This document shows positions 38,667 through 53,227 of a stretch of 64,000 bases of DNA, in pieces. Origin of the DNA: a phage. Positions within the stretch are counted from its first letter, which is position 1. Each line of letters opens with the position of its first letter. A program made the position numbers and the translations under genes. Below the pieces are notes generated by a model. It was not told where the DNA came from, did not search any database, and saw only the letters and a program-made list of their open reading frames with translations. Where the stretch lies: the NCBI GenBank assembly GCA_025812035.1, contig GCA_025812035.1_4719.1; one strand, given 5' to 3'.

Positions 38667-39551
38667 TCAATAACGGCCGTAGCGTTCCTCGAGCCGTTCT
38701 GGTTTTCTCAGAAGGCTATCTTTAAGCGGTACGACGTCGATATCAACACTCTCTGAGTAATAGCCGTTAGAACTACCATACCAACGGATGACAACACAGC
38801 CCTTCGCAGTGCGGATATGGTAGAATGTCCATTGTGTACGTTCGCTATAATAGCCGTAGTCATCGGTTCTTTCCTCGGTTCTTTCTTCAGCACTGAGTAT
38901 CTTTTCACCGATGATATCGTTAATATCGCCCTCAATGTCTTCAAGATACACCTCTTCGCAGCAATCCTGCTGATGACAGAATTCGACAACGTTTCCATCG
39001 CCGCGATAGAAAAGAAGGGCGATACCGTTTCGTAATTGCTCGCTCGTTACATCAGACACGCAATGCAAACTTTTATCGTCGGTTATCACCAAGACATTGT
39101 TGATTACATGCCCGGCAAGCGCTCCAATCTTATTTACCGTAACAATCGGACGAACCGGTTCAGATTGAACGATAGGAATACGGACACAACCAATTAAGGC
39201 CATCCGTCCTTTCGTTGGTCTAACCGCAAGATAAGGTGATTTTCTTGGGTGGTTATGTAGTCGTATTTCTACTTCGTTGAATTTAATCCCGTATGAACAC
39301 AGAAAATAATTGAATAGTTTACGGAATTCCTCGGTTGCTTCTTGCAACGTGATGTTATTTACTGTGAGTTTATGTCCCCTAAACACCCGGGTTAAATCGA
39401 TAACATCCAGTGTTTTGAAATATATTTCCGTAAGGGGATGACCCGTGTATTCCAGGCAAGTAATTGTTCTTTGAACCACGATTTTAGGCGGTGCGCCTTT
39501 AAAACGTTTCAGGTATTTAACGCGATAACGGGTATGATCTGACGTTAACAT
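38667..39551 (-). CDS. hypothetical protein
   Basis: start revised to ATG at 39551 (AGGAGAGGAG 7 nt upstream); the ORF-track N-terminus at 39552-39650 coincides with a hairpin+TTTATGCCG element and is more likely 5' UTR. Confidence 0.5.
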   Translation of the reverse strand: MLTSDHTRYRVKYLKRFKGAPPKIVVQRTITCLEYTGHPLTEIYFKTLDVIDLTRVFRGHKLTVNNITLQEATEEFRKLFNYFLCSYGIKFNEVEIRLHNHPRKSPYLAVRPTKGRMALIGCVRIPIVQSEPVRPIVTVNKIGALAGHVINNVLVITDDKSLHCVSDVTSEQLRNGIALLFYRGDGNVVEFCHQQDCCEEVYLEDIEGDINDIIGEKILSAEERTEERTDDYGYYSERTQWTFYHIRTAKGCVVIRWYGSSNGYYSESVDIDVVPLKDSLLRKPERLEERYGRY

Positions 39552-39616
39552 TTTAATCTCCTCTCCTGGCTTCAGAGAATTCTCAAAATCCGTTAGTTTT
39601 GATAGACGGGATAAGA

Positions 39617-39646
39617 CGGCATAAAAGCCTCCCGTATTGGGAGGCT
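39617..39646 (-). promoter_or_regulatory. stem-loop (AGCCTCCC/GGGAGGCT, 8 bp) followed by TTTATGCCG box
   Basis: hairpin 39626-39646 and box 39617-39625 in minus sense, about 65 nt upstream of the revised start at 39551. Confidence 0.45.
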
Positions 39647-39658
39647 CCATTAATCGGC

Positions 39659-40207
39659 TTATTTCACAAGGACAGCGAATTCGAGAACGTAAATAGCTTC
39701 ATCGTCCATCGGATTTGTCGTGGTATAACCAACGAAGCAATAACCCATAAGCGAGATAAACTCGCTAAGTTTATCGATGACTGATGCCTCGATACGATCG
39801 TCAACAGACAGACGACATTTACGGGTTATGCTACATCCGCGAGGAACGCCAGATAATACGGATAGGAAATGCACGATCCGGTTATTGGTTGTGAACTGTG
39901 CATAATCGTCGTAGTGTTTAAGGTCTTTCATCGTAACCTCTACCGCCACACGGCGATCGGGTGCTACGTATTCAGAGTACGCATACGATGCGATCGTACG
40001 ACGATCTTCAGTTAGGTAAGTATTCCCATCAGGATGATAGCTTTCGATTGTTCCGTCTTCATAGGTGATGGTTACAACAGGTGCGCCGTATTCGTCGCGA
40101 CCGAAATCAACTTTACATTTGTCCGAAAGCGGTAGAACCGTACAAGGCTTTGCATTGTTCTCATCAGGGAGATCGTAACCACTCATCATTTTCAAGAACA
40201 TAGACAT
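39659..40207 (-). CDS. hypothetical protein (tandem paralog A)
   Basis: 182 codons; N-terminus MSMFLKMMSGYDLPDENNAKPCT parallels MSVIVKVMANCDTSDRNNAKPFT of the next gene. Confidence 0.45.
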   Translation of the reverse strand: MSMFLKMMSGYDLPDENNAKPCTVLPLSDKCKVDFGRDEYGAPVVTITYEDGTIESYHPDGNTYLTEDRRTIASYAYSEYVAPDRRVAVEVTMKDLKHYDDYAQFTTNNRIVHFLSVLSGVPRGCSITRKCRLSVDDRIEASVIDKLSEFISLMGYCFVGYTTTNPMDDEAIYVLEFAVLVK

Positions 40208-40293: not shown

Positions 40294-40827
40294 CTACTTA
40301 ACGATCGCGATGATTTTGCCGCCCGCACCGGCGTAATATGCCGTTAACTTACCAGTAAACAACTCTTGTAAAAGACGATTTACGTGACTAACAAAGTTAG
40401 GATTGTCTGATTTTACAAAATCGATGTTTCGCGTTTGTTTTATATCACGATCGATTAAGCGTATTTCCAACAACGCACAAATAAGGCGATCGTCGAGTTT
40501 ACCACTCGTATCCAGCACTTCCCCATACTTCGTAGCACGGACGTCCGCATACATACGGTCAACATCATCCTTCCCAAAACCACAGGAATAGGCGTACGTT
40601 GCGATGGTATTACCATTGTCCATCACGTAAACGTTACCGCCTGGGTAATCGATAAATCGTTGATCCTTATCACCATGAGCGACGAACTCCAGTGTCGGTC
40701 TACCCATCGAATCACGGTTGAATTCAATTGTGGTCAAGCGATCTGGTACCACATGCAACGTAAACGGTTTTGCGTTGTTACGATCGCTAGTATCGCAGTT
40801 AGCCATTACTTTTACAATAACACTCAT
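40294..40827 (-). CDS. hypothetical protein (tandem paralog B)
   Basis: 177 codons; paralogous to 39659-40207. Confidence 0.45.
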   Translation of the reverse strand: MSVIVKVMANCDTSDRNNAKPFTLHVVPDRLTTIEFNRDSMGRPTLEFVAHGDKDQRFIDYPGGNVYVMDNGNTIATYAYSCGFGKDDVDRMYADVRATKYGEVLDTSGKLDDRLICALLEIRLIDRDIKQTRNIDFVKSDNPNFVSHVNRLLQELFTGKLTAYYAGAGGKIIAIVK

Positions 40828-40901: not shown

Positions 40902-41201
40902 TTACTGAAACAAGACATTAAATTCGACGAGATACCCATCGGATCTATCACCACGATATCTGTTGCAGAAAACACCGAATTTCATCAAGAACTCACATAA
41001 CTCTTCGGCTTTGTATAGCGGAATACGATTTTCGTCGAGCAGAGGGCACTTATGGCTAACCCGCTCCGACGAATCAACGCAACACAAATAAAGAAGGAAT
41101 CGAACAATAGCTCGGTTCTTAGTGAAGCTCTCGAATTCACCTGCGGTTCTGAACTCATCGAGGAGCTTTGTCGTTTTCTTCAATCGTTCACGATCAAGCA
41201 T
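40902..41201 (-). CDS. hypothetical protein
   Basis: 99-codon ORF. Confidence 0.4.
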   Translation of the reverse strand: MLDRERLKKTTKLLDEFRTAGEFESFTKNRAIVRFLLYLCCVDSSERVSHKCPLLDENRIPLYKAEELCEFLMKFGVFCNRYRGDRSDGYLVEFNVLFQ

Positions 41202-41223
41202 GTTAACCTCAATACGAACATAA

Positions 41224-41255
41224 CCCTCCTCCTTCCCTTACGGGTTGGAGGAGGG
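41224..41255. repeat. GC-rich stem-loop, repeat copy 3 (32/32 identical to the reverse complement of copy 1)
   Basis: CCCTCCTCCTTCCCTTACGGGTTGGAGGAGGG on the plus strand; intergenic between two minus-strand genes. Confidence 0.5.
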
Positions 41256-41264
41256 GATATGCTG

Positions 41265-41579
41265 TTATTCTGTTTTCGGTGTTGAACCGTTCTTCTTGAA
41301 GTCGGATTCGTATTTCACGTTAGAATCGAGAACCTCACGAACGGTTTTATCCGTACAACCACGAGCGATGTATGCATTAAGATCGTCACGTAATTTACGC
41401 ATCGTTGTTTTATCCGCATCAGAAACATCTGACTTGGTAAGACGGAATGCGATTGCGTCGCGAATCTTATTCAGCATTGCTGGGTTATTACGCTGTTCTG
41501 TAAATACCGCTTTGATGAATTTATCGCTATCTTTCGAAGCGATGGCGGCATCAAGAATCTCAATATGCTTTTCAGACAT
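41265..41579 (-). CDS. hypothetical protein
   Basis: 104-codon ORF, Lys/Asp-rich. Confidence 0.4.
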   Translation of the reverse strand: MSEKHIEILDAAIASKDSDKFIKAVFTEQRNNPAMLNKIRDAIAFRLTKSDVSDADKTTMRKLRDDLNAYIARGCTDKTVREVLDSNVKYESDFKKNGSTPKTE

Positions 41580-41630
41580 CTTCTTTCCTTTATTAAACGA
41601 TCATCGTCATATTCATTGCGCGTGACGTCA

Positions 41631-42860
41631 TCACTTCAGAAGCTTAGACGCCGCCATGCTACGTGCCTTCGCAACGTCATACGCATCCATGATCGCGTCG
41701 CCGATAGCGGTATGACGAATCAACGGAATACCCATGTCTGGATACTCTTTGGTGCCTAAGATGGATACTGGTTTGTCTTGATACGCGGCAAGCATCGAAC
41801 GGATATCCTGAACCTGGTTATACCGACAAACTGGCTTAAAGCCTGCTTTACGGAACCAATGCTCTAATTGAGGCCAATCTGTTTCACCGCGAGCAAGATA
41901 ATAGAAGGTATCTTTACCGTAGTATTCGGTCATCTCATCACGGATATTGTTAACAAATGCATTTACTGTAGCAATGGCTTCTTTATAGTCCATCACTCCG
42001 TCATGCTGAAAACAATAGTCGCGCGCTTCCTTCGGTGCTTTGGTTTGCCACCATTCTACCGTGGACTTACTAATATCACCGCCATCAGCGATTTGACCGT
42101 AAACGTCAGGGAAGATATCTATACGTGGGCCGTTAATAACAGATTCTGGATTAGCCAGATCGAAGAACAAGATGCCGATTTCCAGCAATACCCCGTTCTT
42201 TTCTAGACTGAGATTCTCCACATCCAGGCAAAACGCAGGTTTCTCTACCGCTGAAAAATCAAAATATTCTTCGAGACGCGGCGTTGGTTCGGCGGCGAAA
42301 AACGTCTCATGAATGAACTGGGCGAATGTCTTATTCATTGCTACTAAGTCAATGCCCAATTTACTTAGCAGAGGTATAATCGCGTGGTCATTCTGCTGTA
42401 TCACCACCCACTCTCGGCTTTTGATAGAACGACCAATTGAGTAAAAGAGATGAACGATGTCTAACGGTTTGTACGGAGCCTCAAAAGTTGTTCCCTGGAA
42501 CGACTCAGCCAGCGCCTTATGCGTTTCTTCACGATGATTCATCAGTTGGAGAATAGCGCGGCGCAGATAATACCGTAATGTTATCTCGTGAAGGTGTGAT
42601 ATATCTTCCTGAAATAACGTCATGAAACCGTGGTATGTATAATGCTCGCCTCTTTTAATTTCGTCGAAGAGTTCTTTGTTCCCCTTTATTTCTTCTGGTG
42701 TTACCTGTTTGATTTGATCGTGGATAATGTTGAGCAGGTCACTGCCGTGTACCTTAAACAGTTTTTCAACGCTAAAATCGGGTAATGTCGCAATTGCTGC
42801 GTACATTAATGTTTCTGCGGGATTAAGTTCTTTATTGTCAATTGTGATGGTTAAAGCCAT
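41631..42860 (-). CDS. protein with C-terminal DEDDh-type 3'-5' exonuclease-like domain
   Basis: start revised to ATG at 42860 (GAGGT upstream); candidate Exo I FCLDVENLSL and Exo III HTAIGDAIMDAYDV motifs; N-terminal ~200 aa unassigned. Confidence 0.5.
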   Translation of the reverse strand: MALTITIDNKELNPAETLMYAAIATLPDFSVEKLFKVHGSDLLNIIHDQIKQVTPEEIKGNKELFDEIKRGEHYTYHGFMTLFQEDISHLHEITLRYYLRRAILQLMNHREETHKALAESFQGTTFEAPYKPLDIVHLFYSIGRSIKSREWVVIQQNDHAIIPLLSKLGIDLVAMNKTFAQFIHETFFAAEPTPRLEEYFDFSAVEKPAFCLDVENLSLEKNGVLLEIGILFFDLANPESVINGPRIDIFPDVYGQIADGGDISKSTVEWWQTKAPKEARDYCFQHDGVMDYKEAIATVNAFVNNIRDEMTEYYGKDTFYYLARGETDWPQLEHWFRKAGFKPVCRYNQVQDIRSMLAAYQDKPVSILGTKEYPDMGIPLIRHTAIGDAIMDAYDVAKARSMAASKLLK

Positions 42861-42885
42861 TTTATTATACCTCATCGAAATCAAA

Positions 42886-43227
42886 TTAGTTAAATTCAGG
42901 TTTATCAGCAGCCAGACCAAGTCCAGCCAGTATTACGTAATCATACCAAGCTTTTACTTTCGCTTTCGCATCATCTAAACTATCTGCGTTGATGTGCGGA
43001 AACTCATCGTTGACTGGGAAAGGTAAATCGCAGTCGTAGCTTGTATAGTCTTTCCAACCTTTCCATTCGATAGTTAGAGGACCAAAAACGGTCTCAGCAA
43101 CAACATGGTTATAGCGACAGTTTTCACATGGCGGGTGCTCTTCCGACCAAACAAGCTCATGTCGCGCTAAAAGTTGTTGTACGACCGATAATGGTTGCTC
43201 TTCATTAAGTTCGATACTGTCTATCAA
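42886..43227 (-). CDS. hypothetical protein
   Basis: 113-codon ORF. Confidence 0.4.
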   Translation of the reverse strand: MIDSIELNEEQPLSVVQQLLARHELVWSEEHPPCENCRYNHVVAETVFGPLTIEWKGWKDYTSYDCDLPFPVNDEFPHINADSLDDAKAKVKAWYDYVILAGLGLAADKPEFN

Positions 43228-43820
43228 CGTATACCCTCCTTTTCTTTATCGTAATTACTACAAATATTGACAAACGCAGTATTATCAGACAGCATGCTGA
43301 CCATCTGACGGATTGCGGCCAACGGTTCAAGTTTAGGATTGATTGATTCACCGGTCAACGCGCTTATTGCCCGTGTGATCTCAACCAAATCGACGTTCGG
43401 GTCGTTATCATCAATAATGAGCAGACTCTTCGCTGGTTTCTGACGACGTTTGATGATTAACAAATACGTGATGAGATTCTCACGCCAAGCGTCAGAATCC
43501 AGATTGCGTATTACGGTTAACGCACGACGCTCTTCCGCCCATGATGGTTTCTCACGGATAACAGGCATGTAAGATAATTGCTCAGCAAGCCCTTTCAAGC
43601 TGACGCGGTTGGTGCCACCAGGATGCTCACTAATCCGCAGCATCTCGGTTAACAGACGGACATATGCGGCTGTTGTAGAAACACCCCGCAGCGGCAGGAA
43701 CAAATTATGTCCCGGAACCCCATCGTGACTCAGCGGTGCGATATACGCCATGAATCGCCGAATATCATCGTCGGTCTGTTCTCCAGCAACGAACTTAAAC
43801 GCTTCACGTAAAACGCTCAC
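43224..43820 (-). CDS. hypothetical protein
   Basis: 198-codon ORF. Confidence 0.45.
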   Translation of the reverse strand: MSVLREAFKFVAGEQTDDDIRRFMAYIAPLSHDGVPGHNLFLPLRGVSTTAAYVRLLTEMLRISEHPGGTNRVSLKGLAEQLSYMPVIREKPSWAEERRALTVIRNLDSDAWRENLITYLLIIKRRQKPAKSLLIIDDNDPNVDLVEITRAISALTGESINPKLEPLAAIRQMVSMLSDNTAFVNICSNYDKEKEGIR

Positions 43821-44106
43821 TATGAAGTCTCCTTAATGTTTCTTGCATACGTAGTCTCTTCGGCAGATATAGACGTTTGTATAGATCAACTAACAGATAA
43901 CGCATAACGGAAGCAACCACCAGGTATTCACCTTCGGCTTCCGAATAGCGTATCATGTTAATTGGGTAATTCAAATAAGAATAAGAAAAGAGATCATCGT
44001 TGGTGAGGCGATGATCTTCAAGATACTGGCGAAACAATTCTGCTAAGGCATCGTACTCCATTCCGTAGTAACACAACGATACCTGTCTTACCGACAGTCG
44101 TTTCAT
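43804..44106 (-). CDS. hypothetical protein
   Basis: 100-codon ORF. Confidence 0.4.
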   Translation of the reverse strand: MKRLSVRQVSLCYYGMEYDALAELFRQYLEDHRLTNDDLFSYSYLNYPINMIRYSEAEGEYLVVASVMRYLLVDLYKRLYLPKRLRMQETLRRLHSERFT

Positions 44107-44945
44107 GCTGGGTTACCTTTTAGTTTTTCACGTATCATGTCAACAACGCGTGAGGGATCAGAAATAACATTGGTGATAAGATGATCGATAGGCAGGTCGA
44201 GAACGATTTTCTCCAGCTGGAAAGTCGTATCGTTACAGCGCACACCGTAGAACATTCCTTCTTTAAACACAACCTCGTATGAAATGGGGAGCTGGTTGAT
44301 GATGGTGTTGGCATAGTCACCCAACCACATCGACCCTGCCATCAGATGCACACAAATCAAATGGCTCATACGCACATCCTTGTTCTTCTTGTTAGCATCT
44401 CCGGTTTTCGACATGGTGACCAGAAGCTCACCGATCTTACTCAACAAACCGTCATATACCCCAAAGAACTTAATCAGTTGTTGGGCACCTAACGATATAA
44501 ATGTTTCTCGTGGTAAAACACAACACACCTGCGGTAACGTTCCAACCCCATAAACGCAACTGTGTGGTGATAATGGAAGCAAATCAGCAACCGCATCCTT
44601 GATGTTGTTATACTCAACGATATCGTTGAACGGTGAAAGACCTTTCGTAACCGGTTTATCAATCGCTACATCGAACTCCGCGAACGTCCATGCTGCTTTA
44701 CGAGGTTCCCCTTTCTGGTATGGTGGAGCCAGTACAGCAACAACACGAAGCCGGTATTCGTTGGTATCGCGTAGCTTAAGTTGAATGCCTTCACCGTCGC
44801 CTTTGCGCACGAGCGTGTAGCGGCTTGCGCAACCGTCGCAGACCACCGTTGGTTCATGTTGGCCGTATGCGGCAAGCATCGGTTTACTAAGATCTTTATC
44901 GCAACGACTGCAGCGATGATCCTGTTCCTGGTAACTGATTTTCAC
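44103..44945 (-). CDS. hypothetical protein with N-terminal Cys4 zinc-ribbon-like motif
   Basis: start revised to GTG at 44945 (AAGGGAG upstream), which removes a 98-nt overlap; CSRCDKD...CDGCASRY. Confidence 0.45.
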   Translation of the reverse strand: MKISYQEQDHRCSRCDKDLSKPMLAAYGQHEPTVVCDGCASRYTLVRKGDGEGIQLKLRDTNEYRLRVVAVLAPPYQKGEPRKAAWTFAEFDVAIDKPVTKGLSPFNDIVEYNNIKDAVADLLPLSPHSCVYGVGTLPQVCCVLPRETFISLGAQQLIKFFGVYDGLLSKIGELLVTMSKTGDANKKNKDVRMSHLICVHLMAGSMWLGDYANTIINQLPISYEVVFKEGMFYGVRCNDTTFQLEKIVLDLPIDHLITNVISDPSRVVDMIREKLKGNPA

Positions 44946-44961
44946 ACCGAGACTCCCTTTA

Positions 44962-45918
44962 TTAATGCAATACGCGATCTGCTGGAATTGTCGAAGCGTT
45001 GCTGGCAGACAGATCCGTCGCTTTACGATCAGGACTGAATCGACGAGCGTTCTCTTCATGATAGTTGACGGGGTTATCCTGTTTTAACAGTTCCATTGCT
45101 TCATCAAACGCCAACTCACGAAATCCTCTTGGATAGAGGAACAGAGGCTCATCAACATCCAGCCCTTTAACAAACCCATGCGACAGCCAGACACTACCAT
45201 CAGCACTGTAGAGAACCGGCTCAACATCGTAATCCAAAACGTATTGATACCAGTAATTAAACAGTTGGGCGATCCACCGATTACGTAATAAGTAATCGAT
45301 CACAATCGCACTACGCACGCTATGACACCAGCCGATCTTACCATCAACTTTCTGCAACAACGTACCGTCGTTTGCTTGATGAATAACCGCATTAAATAAC
45401 CACGCAAGATCGGTTGCGAAAAGCGCCGCTTCTTGAATATCGTTAATGTAGCGCACGGGTATCGTCAGATGGGTGCGGTAATGCGCCATCGCCTCTTCGT
45501 AGTTGTCTCCATCGATGCAGAGAATACCGTTTGGCGATAGATGTCCTTGATTCAACGACTGGTTGATGTAAAGATCGGTAATCTCGTTAATATGTTCGAC
45601 GGTACCCAAGGTTAACTCGGACATAAAACGACCGATATCAACAGACATTGATGTACCGGAAACAAACGGATTAGCCGGGTGAGTTGTATTCGAGAAAATA
45701 ATTGACCAAACCGCTTCGTGTTTTTCATCCGACGGGACGAACGAAATATGCCGTTCTGCGCTATCGTCATCAACAGCTACCTTTACTGTTTTCAAACAGC
45801 TGGTACAAACATAGCACGTGTTCGGCAGTGGCATATCCGAAAACATATCGTAACGAATTGATGCGAGAGAAATATCATATCCACAATGGGGGCATGTGTT
45901 ATCGATAAGCGTTTTCAT
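44962..45918 (-). CDS. hypothetical protein with N-terminal zinc-ribbon-like motif
   Basis: 318 codons; CPHCGYD...CYVCTSC. Confidence 0.45.
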   Translation of the reverse strand: MKTLIDNTCPHCGYDISLASIRYDMFSDMPLPNTCYVCTSCLKTVKVAVDDDSAERHISFVPSDEKHEAVWSIIFSNTTHPANPFVSGTSMSVDIGRFMSELTLGTVEHINEITDLYINQSLNQGHLSPNGILCIDGDNYEEAMAHYRTHLTIPVRYINDIQEAALFATDLAWLFNAVIHQANDGTLLQKVDGKIGWCHSVRSAIVIDYLLRNRWIAQLFNYWYQYVLDYDVEPVLYSADGSVWLSHGFVKGLDVDEPLFLYPRGFRELAFDEAMELLKQDNPVNYHEENARRFSPDRKATDLSASNASTIPADRVLH

Positions 45919-46184
45919 TGTTGAATTCCTTTTGATAAAAATAACTGGATATCGGTAAGCTGGTCTTCAGGAACATCATCGGCGGCAGTTAGAACCTTAG
46001 GGCCGTGTTCGCTGAGGTAAGCTTCCTGTTGAAGATGATAAAGTCGATTGGCTTCTTGGAACTCACTGTCCGTCATGTAAACCAACTTAAACTTCGAGCG
46101 TTTATTCGGATTATATTTCTTATTACGTTTCTTTGGTTTCTTCGCCATAATAGCCTCGTGAAGGTGGATGGGTTTACCATCCAC
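45915..46184 (-). CDS. hypothetical protein
   Basis: 89 codons, basic N-terminus. Confidence 0.4.
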   Translation of the reverse strand: MDGKPIHLHEAIMAKKPKKRNKKYNPNKRSKFKLVYMTDSEFQEANRLYHLQQEAYLSEHGPKVLTAADDVPEDQLTDIQLFLSKGIQQ

Positions 46185-46195
46185 CTTCCTCCATG

Positions 46196-46717
46196 TTAAA
46201 GTGCGTTCATCTCTTCAGGTGTACGTACAGTACGAGTGCTGGGATCGACCATTGCTGGCACGCCTGCCGGACATTTACGGACATCGATTCGCATCTCCGG
46301 TTCAATCGGACGAACGCGATAGGTTTTGCCGTCGTCGGTTAACACCGAAATCGTCAACGCCTGGTTCAGCTCATTAACGAAATTCACTAAACGCTGTTGT
46401 CCACCCTTCGTCCAGAAGTTAAGATCGGTTTCACCGTTGAAATAACTGATTCCTTCAGCTGTTCCAATCGTGATTTTAACGATGCCTGGATAATCACGAA
46501 GAAGGGGTGCTTGATAGCCTTCGTCTTCCGTATCCAATTTTACCCATGCGCCTCCTGTGGATAAGCAGTTAACTTCCAGGGCGGTTGGCGCACTAACTTC
46601 TGCTGATGACCAGGTATACATCGTGCCTAGTTTAGCGTGTCCGGTTTCCAGTTCGCTGTAATCCCAAGCATGTGCTGATGCTGTAATAAAGAAAGCCGCA
46701 AGAAATAACTTTTTCAT
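46196..46717 (-). CDS. secreted hypothetical protein
   Basis: signal-peptide-like MKKLFLAAFFITASAHA. Confidence 0.5.
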   Translation of the reverse strand: MKKLFLAAFFITASAHAWDYSELETGHAKLGTMYTWSSAEVSAPTALEVNCLSTGGAWVKLDTEDEGYQAPLLRDYPGIVKITIGTAEGISYFNGETDLNFWTKGGQQRLVNFVNELNQALTISVLTDDGKTYRVRPIEPEMRIDVRKCPAGVPAMVDPSTRTVRTPEEMNAL

Positions 46718-46772
46718 TCTTTTCTATTCCTATTAAAAGTGACCGATTTCTGTGGTCAGGATTGCTAATAAA

Positions 46773-47234
46773 TTAATTCCGGTTTTGTTTCCGTATCGCA
46801 CGGTTACGTTTACGTTCTTGGTCCTTGACTGTACCAAGAAACTGCTTTAATTCTGACGGTTTGATCGTGCCCTCGCGCACCACACCGTTTTGTTCGATAT
46901 GGTACGACCAATAACCAACTTCAGCCGTTAAGGTTAACGTTGTCGGCTGTTCATCGGGTAACGATCGGGGTGAGAAAATAAAGAGTAATTCAAAAGGTGT
47001 TTCTCGGCTGATGATAGGACGGATACTAACATCAAGACCCTCCCATCGCTGAGGTTTAAATATTCCTCCAGCAGCAATGATTGTCTCCGAGCGTTGATCT
47101 ACAAGCTCGGCTAATTCACGATCATCGTTGAAATAAATATCGTGAAGAATATCTGTGTCGATAAAAAACCCGCGTTCCAAATCGTGACGAACAATGGAAT
47201 TCTTCATTCTGCTGCCTTTGTTGTTTGTTTTCAT
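46773..47234 (-). CDS. hypothetical protein
   Basis: 153-codon ORF. Confidence 0.4.
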   Translation of the reverse strand: MKTNNKGSRMKNSIVRHDLERGFFIDTDILHDIYFNDDRELAELVDQRSETIIAAGGIFKPQRWEGLDVSIRPIISRETPFELLFIFSPRSLPDEQPTTLTLTAEVGYWSYHIEQNGVVREGTIKPSELKQFLGTVKDQERKRNRAIRKQNRN

Positions 47235-47283
47235 GTCCTATACGAACACGAAAAACCGTTAATTTTTACCATAACCACGTGCG

Positions 47284-47559
47284 TTAAAATTCCACACCAC
47301 GACCTGTCATCGACGAAGGAACCGCGCGATAATAGAAGTAGATGTAATGGTCACGATGGCTAAAATAGTTTTTGCAAGCATAGAACTCTCCGGATCCAAT
47401 GAATGATTTAATACGTGTAACTTGAGGGTGTCGTGCGATTAACGCCTGTATGACGATTTCCATTTGGTGTGCACTCAAACCAGGTCGAGCTGCAACATGA
47501 TAATGAAGCTCCCTAAGAAATCGTTTCCAGGGGTCGGATTGGGTCGATGATCGAGACAT
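47284..47559 (-). CDS. hypothetical protein
   Basis: 91 codons with AAGGAGA upstream. Confidence 0.4.
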   Translation of the reverse strand: MSRSSTQSDPWKRFLRELHYHVAARPGLSAHQMEIVIQALIARHPQVTRIKSFIGSGEFYACKNYFSHRDHYIYFYYRAVPSSMTGRGVEF

Positions 47560-47588
47560 CTTTATCTCCTTAACGGTTGCTGGTAACG

Positions 47589-47615
47589 CGGCATAAACCC
47601 TCCCCGAAGGGAGGG
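47589..47615 (-). promoter_or_regulatory. stem-loop (CCCUCCC-UUCG-GGGAGGG) followed directly by TTTATGCCG box
   Basis: hairpin 47598-47615 with a UUCG tetraloop in minus sense, box 47589-47597; between the phosphatase gene and the next gene. Confidence 0.45.
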
Positions 47616-47625
47616 TGATTAACGA

Positions 47626-48183
47626 TTACTCCATCCATACTTCTTCGTCGTAATGATTTTCTATCGCATTACGCCAAAAACGCACGGTGTCTAAACTAAT
47701 CGGTGCATAAAAGTGCTGGTCGACGCCTACATTAAGTCCGTTGGCTTTCGCTAACATACAGCGATGAATATGTCCGAATAGATTGAAGTAGCCTGGGTTT
47801 CTTTCGCTGGGTTTATGGCAGAGCCAGTAGGATTCGTCATTGCTGATTGGCAACACCAACGGATGTTCATAAACCGCAGCAAACCCCATACCGAGCAGTT
47901 TATCACGCCAAGCTTCGAAGCTTAACCCTGTTGCTCTGCATGCGTCTTCGTCCCAATTCCCCAACACCAATTGAACCTGGATATCAGAACGAATGGCTTC
48001 CACGAACTCAAACTTACCCCAATCACCCAAATGCCATAAGACACTGTTCTTTGGAAGATTGTTGATGGCTTTCAGCATATGCTGGTTCATATCAGCGACG
48101 CTTGCAAACGGGCGACGTGAATACTTCCAGGTACGCTCGCTATCAAAATGGGTATCCGACGTAAAGAAGATGGGTGGGGTCAT
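47626..48183 (-). CDS. calcineurin-like metallophosphoesterase (Ser/Thr phosphatase-like)
   Basis: motifs FTSDTHFD, LGDW, GNWD and GHIH in the order typical of the metallophosphatase fold. Confidence 0.65.
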   Translation of the reverse strand: MTPPIFFTSDTHFDSERTWKYSRRPFASVADMNQHMLKAINNLPKNSVLWHLGDWGKFEFVEAIRSDIQVQLVLGNWDEDACRATGLSFEAWRDKLLGMGFAAVYEHPLVLPISNDESYWLCHKPSERNPGYFNLFGHIHRCMLAKANGLNVGVDQHFYAPISLDTVRFWRNAIENHYDEEVWME

Positions 48184-48662
48184 TGATCTAATTGCTCCAG
48201 AAACGCACGTCCCGATTTACTTGCTCGTAAATGTTGTTCTGCGGAAGTAAGCAATACGTCAGTTGGTGTATATGCGACGCTACCTTTCCACTCCGTTTTC
48301 AACTTACCCTTTTCGATACTGAACTGAATCAGTTGTTGGGTGCCGAAGTTAAGCGTGTTCGTCGCGGCACTAAATACACCGCCCATCATGCTGTAACCAA
48401 AGACTTTCGCATCTTCTGCGTAAAAGTCATTGTCAATCAATTTGCTCTGAAGCTCAAGTTGGTCGGACGGCAGCAGCCCACCATCAAAGATACTTAAAAT
48501 ACCCGCCAGGCGATAGAGACTCACCTTTCCTGAAACACCTACCACGTAGTTGCCGTACTGTGTTTCCTCCAGTTTGCCAACAACGGTGCGATCGTCGGAG
48601 GTTTTCATCGAAACCTCGATACCGTCCTCAACTTCCGTTAACGTTAAATCAACAATACTCAT
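48180..48662 (-). CDS. hypothetical protein
   Basis: 160 codons; 4-nt overlap with the phosphatase start. Confidence 0.4.
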   Translation of the reverse strand: MSIVDLTLTEVEDGIEVSMKTSDDRTVVGKLEETQYGNYVVGVSGKVSLYRLAGILSIFDGGLLPSDQLELQSKLIDNDFYAEDAKVFGYSMMGGVFSAATNTLNFGTQQLIQFSIEKGKLKTEWKGSVAYTPTDVLLTSAEQHLRASKSGRAFLEQLDQ

Positions 48663-48685
48663 TTATTACTCTCCGCGTTCTCGTT

Positions 48686-49372
48686 TTAACACATGATTTC
48701 GCCATGTTTCTTTTCAACATACATATAAACGTCATCCAAATAAGCGATGAGTTTATCACGATTCGCACAAAGCGATTTAATCATTGCAATCTCTCTCATG
48801 TAAAGCTGCTTACCTAATGCCGGATAAGTAATCCAAGCATAGCCGTCAGGGGCAAATTTAGAAATAAGATAATCAGCAGTTTCCTGCAAGGCGAACTCTT
48901 TGCTCATCTGACCGTAACGATGCTCGATTGCACGGATACCAAAACGTTCGCTGTCAAGACGACCCATATCCGCCAAACGAAGAACCTGTGAAGCAACCGA
49001 GCTGCGAGGACCGGAATAGGAGGCGCGATGTTCAGCAATAAGCACGCGTATCTCCTCGATGTCTTCCGGTGTGAAAATATCTTGCTCGTTACGAAGCAAA
49101 ATAACTGACGCACGAATACCACCGATAAGGTGGTGGTATGTTCTGTTTTCGTGGCAAGCAATATCATGCATAAAAGCAGCGGTTAATAAACGACGACGTT
49201 CCGTGGGTCTAATGATACCAACCACGTCAGCAAGTTCATTTGCCAGTTCGACAACCGCGAGTACATGCTCTTCTTGATGCGCAAGATCATTCTTACGAAT
49301 ATTTTCAATTACTTCGGCGCGTGTTTCCTGAGTTAAGAACTTTAAACAATCCAACGAATATAAAGATTTCAT
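48686..49372 (-). CDS. HD-domain phosphohydrolase-like protein
   Basis: HQEEH...AAFMHDIA pattern (H...HD) consistent with the HD superfamily. Confidence 0.55.
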   Translation of the reverse strand: MKSLYSLDCLKFLTQETRAEVIENIRKNDLAHQEEHVLAVVELANELADVVGIIRPTERRRLLTAAFMHDIACHENRTYHHLIGGIRASVILLRNEQDIFTPEDIEEIRVLIAEHRASYSGPRSSVASQVLRLADMGRLDSERFGIRAIEHRYGQMSKEFALQETADYLISKFAPDGYAWITYPALGKQLYMREIAMIKSLCANRDKLIAYLDDVYMYVEKKHGEIMC

Positions 49373-49419
49373 CGTACGTACCTCTTTGAATCGGTAAATA
49401 TATTAATAAATATTGTTTA

Positions 49420-49456
49420 CTCACGTAAGTAATATAGCCGTGAAAGGATTTGCATT
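49420..49456. promoter_or_regulatory. 37-nt conserved intergenic element, copy B, in the divergent region
   Basis: CTCACGTAAGTAATATAGCCGTGAAAGGATTTGCATT; exact 17-mer shared with 19845-19861. Confidence 0.4.
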
Positions 49457-49526
49457 GGTCCGTTTCGATGACCATCGTATTTTATGGATTGTCGAATGAC
49501 GTCATTTTTAAAGGGACATCCCCGGC

Positions 49527-49560
49527 CTCCTCCCCGGGAAAGGTGCGGGGAGGAGTTTTT
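49527..49560 (+). terminator. plus-strand stem-loop (10-bp CTCCTCCCCG/CGGGGAGGAG) followed by TTTTT, ~30 nt upstream of the helicase start
   Basis: read directly; location upstream of a gene makes attenuator or 5'-UTR structure an alternative. Confidence 0.4.
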
Positions 49561-49589
49561 ACATACTTTCTATTAATTCGAGCGCGATT

Positions 49590-51671
49590 ATGTTGGATAG
49601 AATAAATCGTCTAATGAACCGAATAGCGGTTAAAAATCAGAGTAACAACACCGTGCATATCGGGGGTATCGATGCCTGGCGTCTTTCAGATGACATTCAG
49701 AGAATATGGGGTACCTCCCGATTTATGAAACATATGTTTCGTAATTTCTCTTCCAGTGGACTCAGTCTTCACAACTTTTACCTTCCCGATTTCGTTTATA
49801 TTCTTGAAACGATCATCGAGGCAAAGAATACCCGCAGTAACAAACGCATGCTGAAACACCTTATCGAGGTGCTGCTGCAGGAAACATGGCTGCAAAATAC
49901 CACAATCGAGCAACCTGCAATCCTCGATAAAGCGCGCATGAAGAAAATGATGACGCTTTCTTTGTTCGATTATCAAGATGAGTTTATCGACATCTATAAC
50001 CGTAACGTACCTAAATATCGACTGAAAGGATACGTGTGTGCGATGGGTGCCGGTGCCGGTAAAACTATTACCGCCTTGGCCTTAAGTGCCGCCATGAACG
50101 TCGACGTGTTTGTGGTGTGTTGTCCTAAAAATACGATGCGTTCAGCATGGCAATCCGATGTAAACAAAGCCATCGTTGACCCTGCAACAGAAACCGCGTT
50201 CTGGTCAGATACCATGCCACCATCACAACTACAGAAAAGCGATAAGTACTATTTCCTGCATTACGAATCGATGGGCTTATTAAACGATGTAATGATCAAA
50301 CATAAACGTACAGCGAAACGCGTTCTTATTGTTGTTGACGAAAGCCATAACTTCAACGACAAGAACAGTCAACGTTCCCAACGATTGGTTGATCTTGTAC
50401 AGACGATGCGTCAGACCATGAATGCGGATGTGCATGTCTTGTTTATGTCGGGTACGCCTGTTAAGCAGATGGGTTCTGAGATGATCCCGTGTTTAGGTTG
50501 TATTGACCCGATGTTCCAAGGACAGGTGGTCGATAGCTTCAAATCAATTTACGGTTTAACCAGCAGCCGTGCTAACGATATCCTCAGACATCGTCTTGGG
50601 TTCATGATGCACGTTGTACCTAAAGAAGCTTATCGTAAAACCCGCCCGGAAGTTCAGGACGTTTACGTGAAACTTCCTAACGGTAGCGATTATACCATCT
50701 CGAGTATCCGTGACGATATGGCGATATTTGTACGCGATCGGGCTAAGTATTACAAGGATAACTGGGGGCATTACCGAAAGATCTTTGATGACGCCTTGGA
50801 TTATTACCGTAAAACTATCCGTACTGATGGAGAACGTAGAGAGCTGTCTCGATATGAATCGATTGTCGCTCGTTTCCAGAAAGGTTACGATCCTGTCAGA
50901 GACAAAGAAGATGCGATGTTCTGCAACGCGTTTGAAAAACGTTCCATCATGCCGGTTCTTCCTTCCGATTTAAGGATCGCTTTCAAAGACGCCAAGAGCG
51001 TCATCAAGTACGTTGGGTTGAAAATTCAGGGTGAAGCGTTAGCTCGTGTTCTAGGTGCTGCCCGCATTCGGTGTCATGTCGACATGGTGGAGTACATTGA
51101 CTTCGAAGGGTACATCAACAACGCTGAAGCCAAGGTGTTGATCTTCACGTCGTATGTTCAGGTGGTTGAACGTGTCGACACCATGCTTCGCGATGCTGGT
51201 TTCTTACCTGAACCGATTTACGGGAAGACTAACAAGAACATCAACCAGATACTTGCTCGTTTACGTGACGATCCTGACAGCGGTCCCGCTATCGCAACAT
51301 TTGATAGTTTGGCTGAAGGGGTTCCAATGCTGATGTGTAATGTGGGCCTTTTCCTGAACAACCCATGGCGTTCGTCTGATGAAATTCAGGCCATCAGCCG
51401 TCTCGATCGTGTAGGGCAAACGCAACCTGTTCGGATTTATCGTTTCATGTTAGACACAGGAAGTGAGGGTAACGTTTCTACACGTAGTCATGAGATCATG
51501 GAGTTAAGTCGACAGCTTGTTGAAGAAATCACTGGCGTCAAATACGTAGTGAACAAGCAAGATGATGTTAACTTGCAAGAAACGTTAGCGATGGAAGGAT
51601 ACGATCAATACGTTACCGTAAACCCTAAGGAATACGATATTAAACCGCGGTCTGTGTTCTTGGAATGGTGA
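49590..51671 (+). CDS. SNF2-family helicase
   Basis: Walker A MGAGAGKT, motif II VVDESHNF, motif III FMSGTPVKQ, motif VI QAISRLDRVGQTQPVRIYRF. Confidence 0.8.
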   Translation: MLDRINRLMNRIAVKNQSNNTVHIGGIDAWRLSDDIQRIWGTSRFMKHMFRNFSSSGLSLHNFYLPDFVYILETIIEAKNTRSNKRMLKHLIEVLLQETWLQNTTIEQPAILDKARMKKMMTLSLFDYQDEFIDIYNRNVPKYRLKGYVCAMGAGAGKTITALALSAAMNVDVFVVCCPKNTMRSAWQSDVNKAIVDPATETAFWSDTMPPSQLQKSDKYYFLHYESMGLLNDVMIKHKRTAKRVLIVVDESHNFNDKNSQRSQRLVDLVQTMRQTMNADVHVLFMSGTPVKQMGSEMIPCLGCIDPMFQGQVVDSFKSIYGLTSSRANDILRHRLGFMMHVVPKEAYRKTRPEVQDVYVKLPNGSDYTISSIRDDMAIFVRDRAKYYKDNWGHYRKIFDDALDYYRKTIRTDGERRELSRYESIVARFQKGYDPVRDKEDAMFCNAFEKRSIMPVLPSDLRIAFKDAKSVIKYVGLKIQGEALARVLGAARIRCHVDMVEYIDFEGYINNAEAKVLIFTSYVQVVERVDTMLRDAGFLPEPIYGKTNKNINQILARLRDDPDSGPAIATFDSLAEGVPMLMCNVGLFLNNPWRSSDEIQAISRLDRVGQTQPVRIYRFMLDTGSEGNVSTRSHEIMELSRQLVEEITGVKYVVNKQDDVNLQETLAMEGYDQYVTVNPKEYDIKPRSVFLEW

Positions 51672-51772
51672 TTAAGAAGCTCTGCCTGATGTCAGGCAGA
51701 GCTTTATGCTGCGTTTACTGCAAAATCGTATGACGTATATACGTCGTAATGATTAAAAATAGGGCAGAACAC

Positions 51773-53227
51773 ATGAAACTCAAACAAAGCTGGAAAAACG
51801 AACTCCTTGCATTAGTAAACAGCAAAAACAGTTTACAACTGACATTAGACGACGTAAAATTTGAACTAACCGAACCGGTAAGCGAAGTGCCTGGAACGGT
51901 CGTTGTTACGATCAAACCGAACGATAATAGTCGCTACTTTAACGAGCAGTCTCTGACCTACGTCCGTCGAGACATTGCTAAAAACTTCACCGGGATTCCG
52001 TTACGGGTTATCGTTAAAAAAGATACCGCCGTAAGGGATATCATCAGTACGATTGCTAAACGTTACGGACTGGTATTTGATACCACTGTCGACTTCCTCG
52101 AATCAGAACTGAATAAGCAAATTACTTTCGCAGACACCGGTATTAAAGACGTTACGGTTCCGGTTGCCAATACGTCTTATGTTTGGGCCGGTAATCTTCA
52201 GTTCAATATCGCTAACGATACGTTAAGCTTGATTACTATCATCAAGAAAACCGATCTTACGAATCTGGTTTATCTGGATGGTGTTGAAGCTGACACATCG
52301 GGGTCGTTACTGTTAGCAACCGCAGCACTTGTTAACGAACACGTAAATGAACCGATGGTTGAAAACGAAGATATCGTTAATGAATTCATTAACGTTCTTA
52401 ATGCTCTAGCCAAATATGGTGACATAACCGGCGATGAATTAGATGCCGCCTTACAAGCGTACGATGAAGCAGAAAACAGGAATAAAACCACGGTAATAAC
52501 TCTTGGTGATATCGAGTGCGTTGCAACCGAAAAAGACGATTGGGAAATTGGACATTTACGCGGTCGGATGGTTCTCGCGCTCAAATCCGATAAACAACCG
52601 GAGCTCGATAACACGTTCAGGTTGTTTACGAATGGTGGTGATGTATCGCTAACGTTAAACACAATGAAAGATATAAGTATCGATTGGGGTGATGGGAATA
52701 AAGTAACGTTGGATGCCGAAGAAAGATACGCGCACCACACATATGCCGACAATAACCAATACCAAATCGAAATTGTGTCTCGTACGGACCCAGATGTGCT
52801 GCGACCAAATTATATTTCTGGGAGTGAGATAACCGAAGTAATTCACTGGGCTACTACTTCAACAATAGCTCTGAATTTTGTTGGATGCGATAATTTAGCG
52901 ACTGTTCCAGATGAGATCCCAACTTCGTGGACAACGTTGGACAGCATGTTTGAAAGTTGTACGAATTTGAATGATCCGTCTATCTCTAACTGGAATACAA
53001 GTAACATCACATCAATGAATGGTATGTTCGGCGGATGCACTAAATTTAACCAACCTTTAGCTGCCTGGGATGTCAGCTCGGTAACTGACATTGGTGGTAT
53101 GTTTGTCGGGTGTAGCAGTTTTAACCAAGATTTAAGTGGATGGCGATTACCGTCTGGAGTAAACCACCGCGATTACGATAGTGGTGCTTTCTCGTGGCAG
53201 ACGGAACATAAACCGACGTTCAAGTAA
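51773..53227 (+). CDS. tail fibre-like protein (shared N-domain, PKD-like segment, DUF285-type repeats)
   Basis: start revised to ATG at 51773 (MKLKQSWKNELLALVN aligns with paralog N-termini); IDWGDGNKVT...YAHHTY; C-terminal ...FNQPLAAWDVSSVTDIGGMF...FNQDLSGW. Confidence 0.55.
   Translation: MKLKQSWKNELLALVNSKNSLQLTLDDVKFELTEPVSEVPGTVVVTIKPNDNSRYFNEQSLTYVRRDIAKNFTGIPLRVIVKKDTAVRDIISTIAKRYGLVFDTTVDFLESELNKQITFADTGIKDVTVPVANTSYVWAGNLQFNIANDTLSLITIIKKTDLTNLVYLDGVEADTSGSLLLATAALVNEHVNEPMVENEDIVNEFINVLNALAKYGDITGDELDAALQAYDEAENRNKTTVITLGDIECVATEKDDWEIGHLRGRMVLALKSDKQPELDNTFRLFTNGGDVSLTLNTMKDISIDWGDGNKVTLDAEERYAHHTYADNNQYQIEIVSRTDPDVLRPNYISGSEITEVIHWATTSTIALNFVGCDNLATVPDEIPTSWTTLDSMFESCTNLNDPSISNWNTSNITSMNGMFGGCTKFNQPLAAWDVSSVTDIGGMFVGCSSFNQDLSGWRLPSGVNHRDYDSGAFSWQTEHKPTFK

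Follow-up and report, generated by a model that had tools for sequence, protein, structure and literature searches.

When an exonuclease, a phosphoesterase and an HD-domain protein are encoded close together in a phage genome, are the three genes parts of one functional module, and would such a module act on nucleic acids and nucleotides or on the signals of the host? We addressed this question for positions 41631-49372 of a 64,000-nucleotide stretch of phage DNA (contig GCA_025812035.1_4719.1 of assembly GCA_025812035.1; the whole stretch is called the window below). Positions 41000-50000 align over their whole length with Escherichia phage vB_EcoM_Goslar (hereafter Goslar), a nucleus-forming jumbo phage in the family Chimalliviridae, at 90.9% nucleotide identity, and the initial 25 kb of the window match Goslar as well, in unchanged orientation; genes are named here after their Goslar orthologues. 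Goslar-like relatives, of which bacterial assemblies contain ~60 genomes, were found mainly as ~240 kb contigs within E. coli, Salmonella, and Shigella assemblies, which fits the Goslar-like “persistent” phages (bioRxiv 10.1101/2024.12.31.630880). We find that the three hydrolases are no dedicated module, and that they form a loose cluster only. The explanation that we prefer, with modest confidence, is that of three independent hydrolases of nucleic-acid and nucleotide turnover encoded in an early block, together with an exchangeable adaptor of the Goslar lineage on the exonuclease, which probably tethers this enzyme to the virion or to another large assembly; the substrates, the role of the adaptor, and true packaging are what we infer here.

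Three hydrolases with intact catalytic residues

All three open reading frames (ORFs) lie on the minus strand, at the coordinates given in an earlier note on this DNA, and the three enzyme classes named there (DEDDh-type exonuclease, calcineurin-like metallophosphoesterase, and HD protein) are borne out by Pfam and PHROG matches and by the catalytic residues, which are intact in all three proteins. Their Goslar orthologues are transcribed and have been detected by mass spectrometry; RefSeq names them a 3′-5′ exoribonuclease (gp147), a metallophosphoesterase family protein (gp157), and an HD domain-containing protein (gp159). Purifying selection on each of the three genes is strong: with Goslar and a relative from a Salmonella assembly as the reference genomes, the ratio of nonsynonymous to synonymous substitution rates (dN/dS) is 0.06-0.12 in the exonuclease domain, and 0.03-0.04 in both the phosphoesterase and the HD protein.

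The gp147 orthologue (41631-42860, minus strand, 409 amino acids [aa]; 84.4% identical to Goslar gp147) is a predicted DEDDh exonuclease of the Rv2179c/T4 DexA type. Its putative 3′-5′ exonuclease domain (aa 206-409; 41631..42245, minus strand) matches PF16473 (Rv2179c-like) over aa 211-393 (E 1.1e-14, 55 bits, cut-off 27), and the protein matches PHROG 255 (“exonuclease”) at 3e-27. T4 DexA (8kel) is a weak match, in which D213/E215 align with the D-x-E of DexA. The DEDDh residues (D213, E215, D328, H383, and D388) are unchanged in 17 homologues, and by inspection RAY gp64 and the exonuclease of SA002 also have motifs II and III; like T4 DexA and M. tuberculosis Rv2179c, the C-terminal 200 aa carry the catalytic D-x-E, D, and H-x4-D. 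As these two enzymes do, the phage protein would use two-metal DEDDh catalysis to release 5′-mononucleotides from the free 3′-OH ends of single-stranded DNA or RNA. The relatives in PF16473 are single-domain proteins of ~170-250 aa, whereas the gp147 orthologue has an additional N-terminal domain of 205 aa. Single-domain homologues of the core were found in RAY (gp64), SA002, RisingSun, T4-like Aeromonas phages (DexA), and lambdoid prophages, and phage relatives outside the Goslar group align to aa 210-406 only. RAY gp64 was found in the cytoplasm, together with thymidylate kinase (PMC10299810).

The gp157 orthologue (47626..48183, minus strand, 185 aa; COG4186/Metallophos_2) matches PF12850 (Metallophos_2; E 3.3e-7, 30.9 bits, cut-off 27) and PHROG 547 (2.9e-31), and its metal ligands (D10, H12, G53-D54, G75-N76, H123, G137-H138, and H140) are invariant among 35 homologues. 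A profile built from these 35 sequences retrieves Aquifex aq_1665 (1xm7; E 1e-13) and the MJ0936 phosphodiesterase (2ahd; 5e-4), to which the phage protein is alike in size (~185 aa) and in all dinuclear-metal ligands; aq_1665 has no known substrate, and the phage enzyme differs from it in being coupled to a high-copy virion protein and in being itself recovered with virions. The earlier description of this enzyme as Ser/Thr-phosphatase-like holds at the superfamily level and fails for the PPP family. The phage protein has the fold of the calcineurin-like superfamily and the D-x-H metal motif in common with the PPP enzyme lambda NinI (lambda-PP), but PF00149 remains below its cut-off (16.2 vs 21.5 bits), and where the PPP family has GDxHG, GDxVDRG, and GNHE (the last two also in lambda NinI), the phage protein reads SDTHF, LGDWG, and GNWD. 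It is placed in the aq_1665/MJ0936 branch and not among the PPP-type Ser/Thr phosphatases, and it would cleave phosphodiester or phosphomonoester bonds of nucleotides or of phosphorylated nucleic-acid ends. The stop codon of the gp158 orthologue overlaps the start codon of the phosphoesterase gene (ATGA), and the latter is translationally coupled to gp158.

Homologues of the phosphoesterase occur in Yoloswag-like Erwinia phages, Gram-positive Herelleviridae, and Streptomyces phages. For example, the gene lies near those for primase, RNA ligase, and single-stranded DNA-binding protein in Erwinia phage Yoloswag (the RNA ligase being three genes away), near ribonucleotide reductase and DNA polymerase genes in Bacillus phage phiAGATE, and beside RNase H and a separately annotated NinI-like phosphatase in Enterococcus phage EFP01; in two metagenomic homologues, the phosphoesterase is joined to a domain that resembles nucleoside 2-deoxyribosyltransferase (PF15891).

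The gp159 orthologue (48686..49372, minus strand, 228 aa) matches PF01966 (HD; E 5.1e-8, 33.6 bits, cut-off 22) and PHROG 3921 (9e-30), and H36, H69-D70, H80-H81, H115, and D135 are unchanged in six chimallivirus homologues. Homologues are present in ~97 phage records, mostly chimalliviruses, in variable contexts; the relatives were drawn from phage records, a word-indexed homologue search having given just one near-identical cluster. The nearest solved relatives in a profile search are E. coli YedJ (3gw7; E 1.1e-7) and 2pq7 (8e-6), with which the phage protein shares the H...HD...HH...H...D motif and an upstream ND-x-AH. In a published alignment (PMC11592144), YedJ stands alongside the nucleotide pyrophosphohydrolase YpgQ and the nucleoside 5′-monophosphatase PenF. 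The phage protein is just ~25-30% identical over the core to this group (YedJ, 2pq7, YpgQ, and PenF), the profile search did not retrieve YpgQ, YedJ is itself uncharacterised, and the phage family, unlike YedJ, YpgQ, and PenF, is spread through the chimalliviruses. We classify the gp159 orthologue, on sequence grounds, as a YedJ-like HD phosphohydrolase, which would dephosphorylate nucleotides. Pfam gave only the generic HD family, with HD-CE (E 0.07) and AAA_lid_2 (0.092) below threshold, and the single NCBIfam match, HDIG, fell below its cut-off (15.5 vs 27.6); the alignment of six sequences shows no evident conserved GYP motif, and no profile match of the HD-GYP or SpoT/Mesh1 type was obtained. 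A conserved pair of the HD gene and its downstream gene was also considered and rejected: the followers of ~160 aa in RisingSun, RAY, OBP, and PCH45 are unrelated to gp158 and to one another.

That the three hydrolases are no dedicated module follows from their differing distributions among phages and from the genes between them, which are orphans of the Goslar lineage. What is conserved is the neighbourhood of the exonuclease core, the thymidylate synthase gene, and the HD gene (~8 kb in RAY and SA002, and ~11 kb in Goslar), and this points to nucleotide metabolism. The earlier note had suggested a functional cluster directed against nucleotide second messengers or host phosphorylation, for which we find no support: besides the distributions and the orphan genes, the surrounding block includes two virion-protein genes (the capsid latch gp146 and the high-copy gp158), the phosphoesterase is not of the PPP type, the HD protein is nearest to YedJ and 2pq7, of which YedJ is grouped with nucleotide phosphohydrolases, and the core and the HD gene stand beside thymidylate synthase in RAY-type chimalliviruses. 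A role in nucleic-acid and nucleotide turnover is better supported than one against signalling.

The two-allele N-terminal domain of the exonuclease

The N-terminal domain of the exonuclease (aa 1-205; 42246..42860, minus strand) is acidic in composition and, by prediction, mostly alpha-helical. Among 17 full-length homologues, the first ~205 residues are of two types, A (the allele of the window) and B, which are ~23% identical but can be aligned weakly (E 0.007); the exonuclease domain hardly varies, with ~91% identity across both types, and the proteins of neighbouring genes are 75-96% identical in these genomes. In comparison with a type-B genome, nucleotide identity falls from ~80% to 40-50% exactly from the gene start to the domain junction, and rises to 84% beyond it. 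For the other neighbourhood genes compared, in seven genomes, identity between types equals identity within types, and both types are present in E. coli as well as in Salmonella assemblies, which together make the N-terminal domain a discrete polymorphic cassette, independent of the background. We conclude that the domain behaves as a cassette that can be exchanged, and that the segregation of its two deeply diverged alleles does not depend on the genomic background. Its dN/dS within type A is 0.30, the highest in the region. Host-genus specificity of the alleles is rejected by the occurrence of both in either genus, and a neighbouring partner gene that co-varies with the type of the domain was rejected within a 12-kb neighbourhood.

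The earlier note had left this extension unassigned, and so it stays: the ~205 aa have no match in sequence or fold searches. When the full-length exonuclease was compared to Pfam, PHROGs, and NCBIfam, the N-terminal region remained without a match; a profile of the domain gave nothing among PDB sequences beyond a sub-threshold uL15m (E 0.12); and an exhaustive profile search with HMMER over 1.84 billion representatives returned Goslar-like exonucleases only, plus spurious repeat proteins (e.g., an assembled RHS repeat). The full-length exonuclease is found only in Goslar-like phages, and its N-terminal domain has no detectable relative outside them. Structure prediction, which the earlier note had proposed as a check, was run and gave models too poor for the assignment of a fold to the domain: the mean predicted local distance difference test score (pLDDT) of the full-length AlphaFold model is 51, with 60-87 in the N-terminal domain and <50 in the exonuclease domain (where the alignment is almost invariant, which accounts for the low value), and a model of the N-terminal domain only was poorer (44.7). 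Fold searches with the domain found no relative, which is weak evidence, since the query was a low-confidence model.

In the Goslar lineage, an exonuclease that is otherwise a single-domain enzyme would have been fused to an orphan acidic helical domain of ~205 residues. The most likely role of this domain, in our view, is that of an adaptor by which the nuclease is tethered to a partner.

Early transcription, virion co-purification, and the competing explanations

Published RNA sequencing of Goslar at 30 min post infection gives the timing of these genes. Under knockdown of chmA, the transcripts of gp140-gp159 change by log2 -1.0 to +1.2 (bioRxiv 10.1101/2023.09.20.558163, Supplementary Table 2), and those of the oppositely oriented gp160-gp161 drop ~30-fold (log2 ~ -5); the profile under chmA knockdown is equated by the authors with early, vesicle-stage transcription (bioRxiv 10.1101/2023.09.20.558163). 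By this equation the unchanged gp140-gp159 belong to the early class, so the minus-strand block of Goslar, including the thymidylate synthase gene, is transcribed early.

What the adaptor would bind to is suggested by label-free quantitative mass spectrometry of CsCl-purified Goslar virions, from which copy numbers per virion were estimated and published. The phosphoesterase gp157 was found at ~75 copies per virion (14 peptides, 63% coverage) and the exonuclease gp147 at ~59 copies (22 peptides, 51% coverage), in the same range as the tail-fibre and PF12699 inner-body proteins and above the five subunits of the virion RNA polymerase (7-21 copies); the HD protein gp159 and gp151, whose genes are co-expressed neighbours, were estimated at ~1.1 copies (background) and ~0.3 copies, respectively. 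In its co-purification with virions gp147 differs from T4 DexA and Rv2179c. Since the exonuclease and the phosphoesterase co-purify with virions, and the HD protein and gp151 (the only further neighbour that was checked) do not, the partner that we favour is the virion or another large phage assembly. Peptides of the N-terminal domain (aa 48-62) are present in the virion data, so the domain is not removed, and a cleaved capsid-targeting propeptide is unlikely.

Several observations weigh against our preferred explanation, that of three turnover hydrolases with an adaptor on the exonuclease. The same preparation contained non-virion proteins (PhuZ at 171 copies, chimallin at 126, ChmC at 78, RecA at 27, the non-virion RNA polymerase subunit gp38 at 25, and thymidylate synthase at 20), and the authors of the virion study report that nucleus fragments and PhuZ filaments co-purified; packaging of gp147 and gp157 is suggested by these data, and the virion association is only suggestive. 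Both genes are of the early class, which is unusual for packaged proteins. The N-terminal domain was modelled poorly (pLDDT of 45-51 overall, and 60-87 locally), and the missing fold match counts for little. The proteins of the nearest solved structures (aq_1665, YedJ, and 2pq7) are themselves uncharacterised. Finally, the chromosome of the host is left undegraded by RAY (PMC12908238), which nevertheless keeps the exonuclease core, so salvage of host DNA is not the whole story.

The alternative that survives best overlaps with this explanation, and hinges on the proteomics being real: the exonuclease (by means of its N-terminal domain) and the phosphoesterase would be packaged inside the capsid, to be injected with the genome as early effectors, and the alleles would reflect selection by host sensors. 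The copy numbers given above, the low values of the HD protein and gp151, and the N-terminal peptides in the virion data are all in its favour, as are the coupling of the phosphoesterase gene to gp158, which has ~926 copies per virion, and the single-domain relatives that lack the N-terminal domain, of which RAY gp64 is cytoplasmic. We nevertheless regard it as unlikely, because non-virion assemblies and soluble enzymes reached 20-170 “copies” in the same preparation, the virion study neither modelled nor discussed gp147 and gp157, the transcripts are early and not late, and no gene of the neighbourhood co-varies with the type of the N-terminal domain. A similarly low probability is given to the proposal that the domain is a virion-targeting and delivery module, the two freely recombining alleles of which are maintained by selection from sensors with which hosts detect early or injected proteins of chimalliviruses.

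Still less likely is a role in RNA metabolism, in which an Rv2179c-like exoribonuclease would degrade host RNA or process phage RNA in the cytoplasm, and the phosphoesterase would heal 2′,3′-cyclic-phosphate or 3′-phosphate ends for degradation or ligation. The Pfam family is indeed named after the exoribonuclease Rv2179c, and the RefSeq name of gp147 agrees; the phosphoesterase homologues of Yoloswag and the Enterococcus phage lie three genes from an RNA ligase gene and next to RNase H, respectively; and RAY gp64 is located in the cytoplasm, where mRNA is. However, the sole solved relative found by sequence, T4 DexA, is a deoxyribonuclease, no RNA ligase or polynucleotide kinase was found in the block (by Pfam, PHROGs, NCBIfam, and the Goslar annotation), and the linkage is to thymidylate synthase and not to RNA-repair genes.

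The superfamilies of these enzymes include cyclic-nucleotide phosphodiesterases, and phages do encode early hydrolases for counter-defence, such as Acb1, Apyc1, and AcrIII-1, which have other folds (2H phosphoesterase, metallo-beta-lactamase, and ring nuclease, respectively) than the DEDDh, calcineurin-like, and HD folds assigned to the three enzymes here. One or more of the three enzymes could in this way destroy immune second messengers (cyclic oligonucleotides, cyclic mononucleotides, or alarmones) or reverse defence-related phosphorylation; their early expression, when such an activity is needed, and a fast-evolving two-allele domain that resembles an arms-race interface would agree with this. 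We consider it the least likely of the alternatives, as it rests just on what these enzyme classes can do, no family of the Acb1, Apyc1, or AcrIII-1 type was found in Pfam, PHROGs, NCBIfam, and PADLOC scans (none of which was aimed at those families), the HD protein matches only the generic HD family in Pfam and has no evident conserved GYP motif, the phosphoesterase is no PPP protein phosphatase, cyclic messengers lack the free 3′ end that DEDDh enzymes require and so would not be opened by them, evolution of the HD protein and the phosphoesterase is very slow (dN/dS as above), unlike that of typical arms-race proteins, and the contexts in other phages are those of nucleotide and DNA metabolism.

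Surrounding genes and regulatory sequences

Nine co-directional ORFs of unassigned function (the gp148-gp156 orthologues; 42886..47559, minus strand) separate the exonuclease gene from the phosphoesterase gene. They are syntenic in Goslar-like genomes, where they are 75-97% identical, and searches of Pfam, PHROGs, NCBIfam, and PADLOC gave no significant family match for them except PHROG 33319 for gp148; PADLOC gave no matches. Zn-ribbon-like proteins are encoded at 44103-44945 and 44962-45918 (minus strand). The first of these had been listed as an ORF of 318 aa (44103-45059, minus strand) with an overlap of 98 nt with the upstream gene; as the product has 280 aa in all relatives, translation probably begins at 44945. 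No paralogy between gp151 and gp152 could be detected. The secreted protein that the earlier note had mentioned among the unassigned ORFs was also recovered: the gp154 orthologue (46196-46717, minus strand) begins with a canonical signal peptide (MKK-hydrophobic-AHA|W), as read from the sequence. It is the most conserved gene of the region (96.5% identical to Goslar and to the Salmonella relative, dN/dS 0.02-0.03), its sole match in the phage collection is Goslar, and gp154 was estimated at ~11 copies in the virion data.

Directly downstream of the exonuclease gene lies the gp146 orthologue (41265..41579, minus strand, 104 aa), 94% identical to Goslar gp146, which is the capsid “latch” on the penton of the major capsid protein in a cryo-electron microscopy model (bioRxiv 10.64898/2026.04.21.720040). 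The gp158 orthologue (48180..48662, minus strand, 160 aa) is an acidic orphan of the lineage (dN/dS 0.03-0.08) that matches only Goslar in the phage collection; gp158 is the second most abundant unmodelled protein of the Goslar virion (bioRxiv 10.64898/2026.04.21.720040).

Further along the minus strand, the orthologues of gp143 (39659-40207) and gp144 (40294-40827) are paralogues, 36-40% identical over their first 81 residues. An ORF of 327 aa between the gp143 orthologue and the thymidylate synthase gene (38667-39650, minus strand) has a C-terminal DUF7448 (E 3.7e-24); it is missing from Goslar and from the related contigs L002, L016, L017, is present in L014 and L015, and is thus a variable accessory gene. 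Another ORF (40902-41201, minus strand, 99 aa), co-directional with the block, is 99% identical in Goslar, is called as a gene in related contigs, and is weakly paralogous to the C-terminus of gp143; at the equivalent position the Goslar RefSeq record has gp145 on the opposite strand, which is probably a misannotation. In L015 (15135-17262), a homing-endonuclease gene of the GIY-YIG/NUMOD3 kind interrupts that for thymidylate synthase, an insertion that looks intron-type.

The block holds one strong terminator-like hairpin, after the gp144 orthologue, according to a terminator scan. Between 38500 and 50000, matches to a sigma-70-like promoter number 12, about half of the 22.7 ± 5.4 expected by chance, and this depletion is consistent with transcription by the phage’s own RNA polymerases. 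The sequence TATATTAC, which we take to be the PhiKZ-type early promoter motif, occurs 57 nt upstream of the start of the HD gene; such a promoter was rejected, as the window contains 3 occurrences of the motif against 2.2 expected, which is no enrichment. GC-rich hairpins at 47560-47625 (after the phosphoesterase gene) and 41202-41264 (after the capsid latch gene), both on the minus strand and noticed by eye only, are not among the sites that the scan reported; they may split the block into a unit of HD gene, gp158, and phosphoesterase gene, and a second unit that runs from gp156 through the exonuclease gene to gp146.

The HD gene and the late SNF2-type helicase gene diverge from an intergenic region (49373..49589, no strand) that is far better conserved than the synonymous sites beside it, with 87% column identity across three genomes, compared with a flanking dS of ~0.9. 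It contains a GC-rich hairpin of 10 bp, the pairing of which is kept through a double change from G-C to A-T in Goslar and L002. On its other side, 49590-53227 (plus strand) encodes the SNF2-type helicase (gp160 orthologue) and a repeat protein with DUF7941 and DUF285 (gp161 orthologue); gp161 is a BspA-type leucine-rich repeat protein in RefSeq, and in Goslar gp160 and gp161 are of the late class and were estimated at ~11 and ~111 copies in the virion data.

The hydrolase cluster as such is ordinary, its three genes being already annotated in Goslar. What is new is that a DexA-like exonuclease carries an orphan head that has two alleles and is apparently present in the virion, and this is a reasonable experimental lead: an enzyme of known chemistry with a swapped, lineage-specific domain provides a testable way to learn how cargo is targeted or the host is recognised in a chimallivirus that infects E. 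coli, and CRISPRi-ART knockdown and virion-labelling assays are already available for Goslar. To our knowledge, no enzyme cargo other than RNA polymerase has been described for a nucleus-forming phage. If the N-terminal domain were a delivery module, the exonuclease would be the first such cargo, and one with an exchangeable targeting head.

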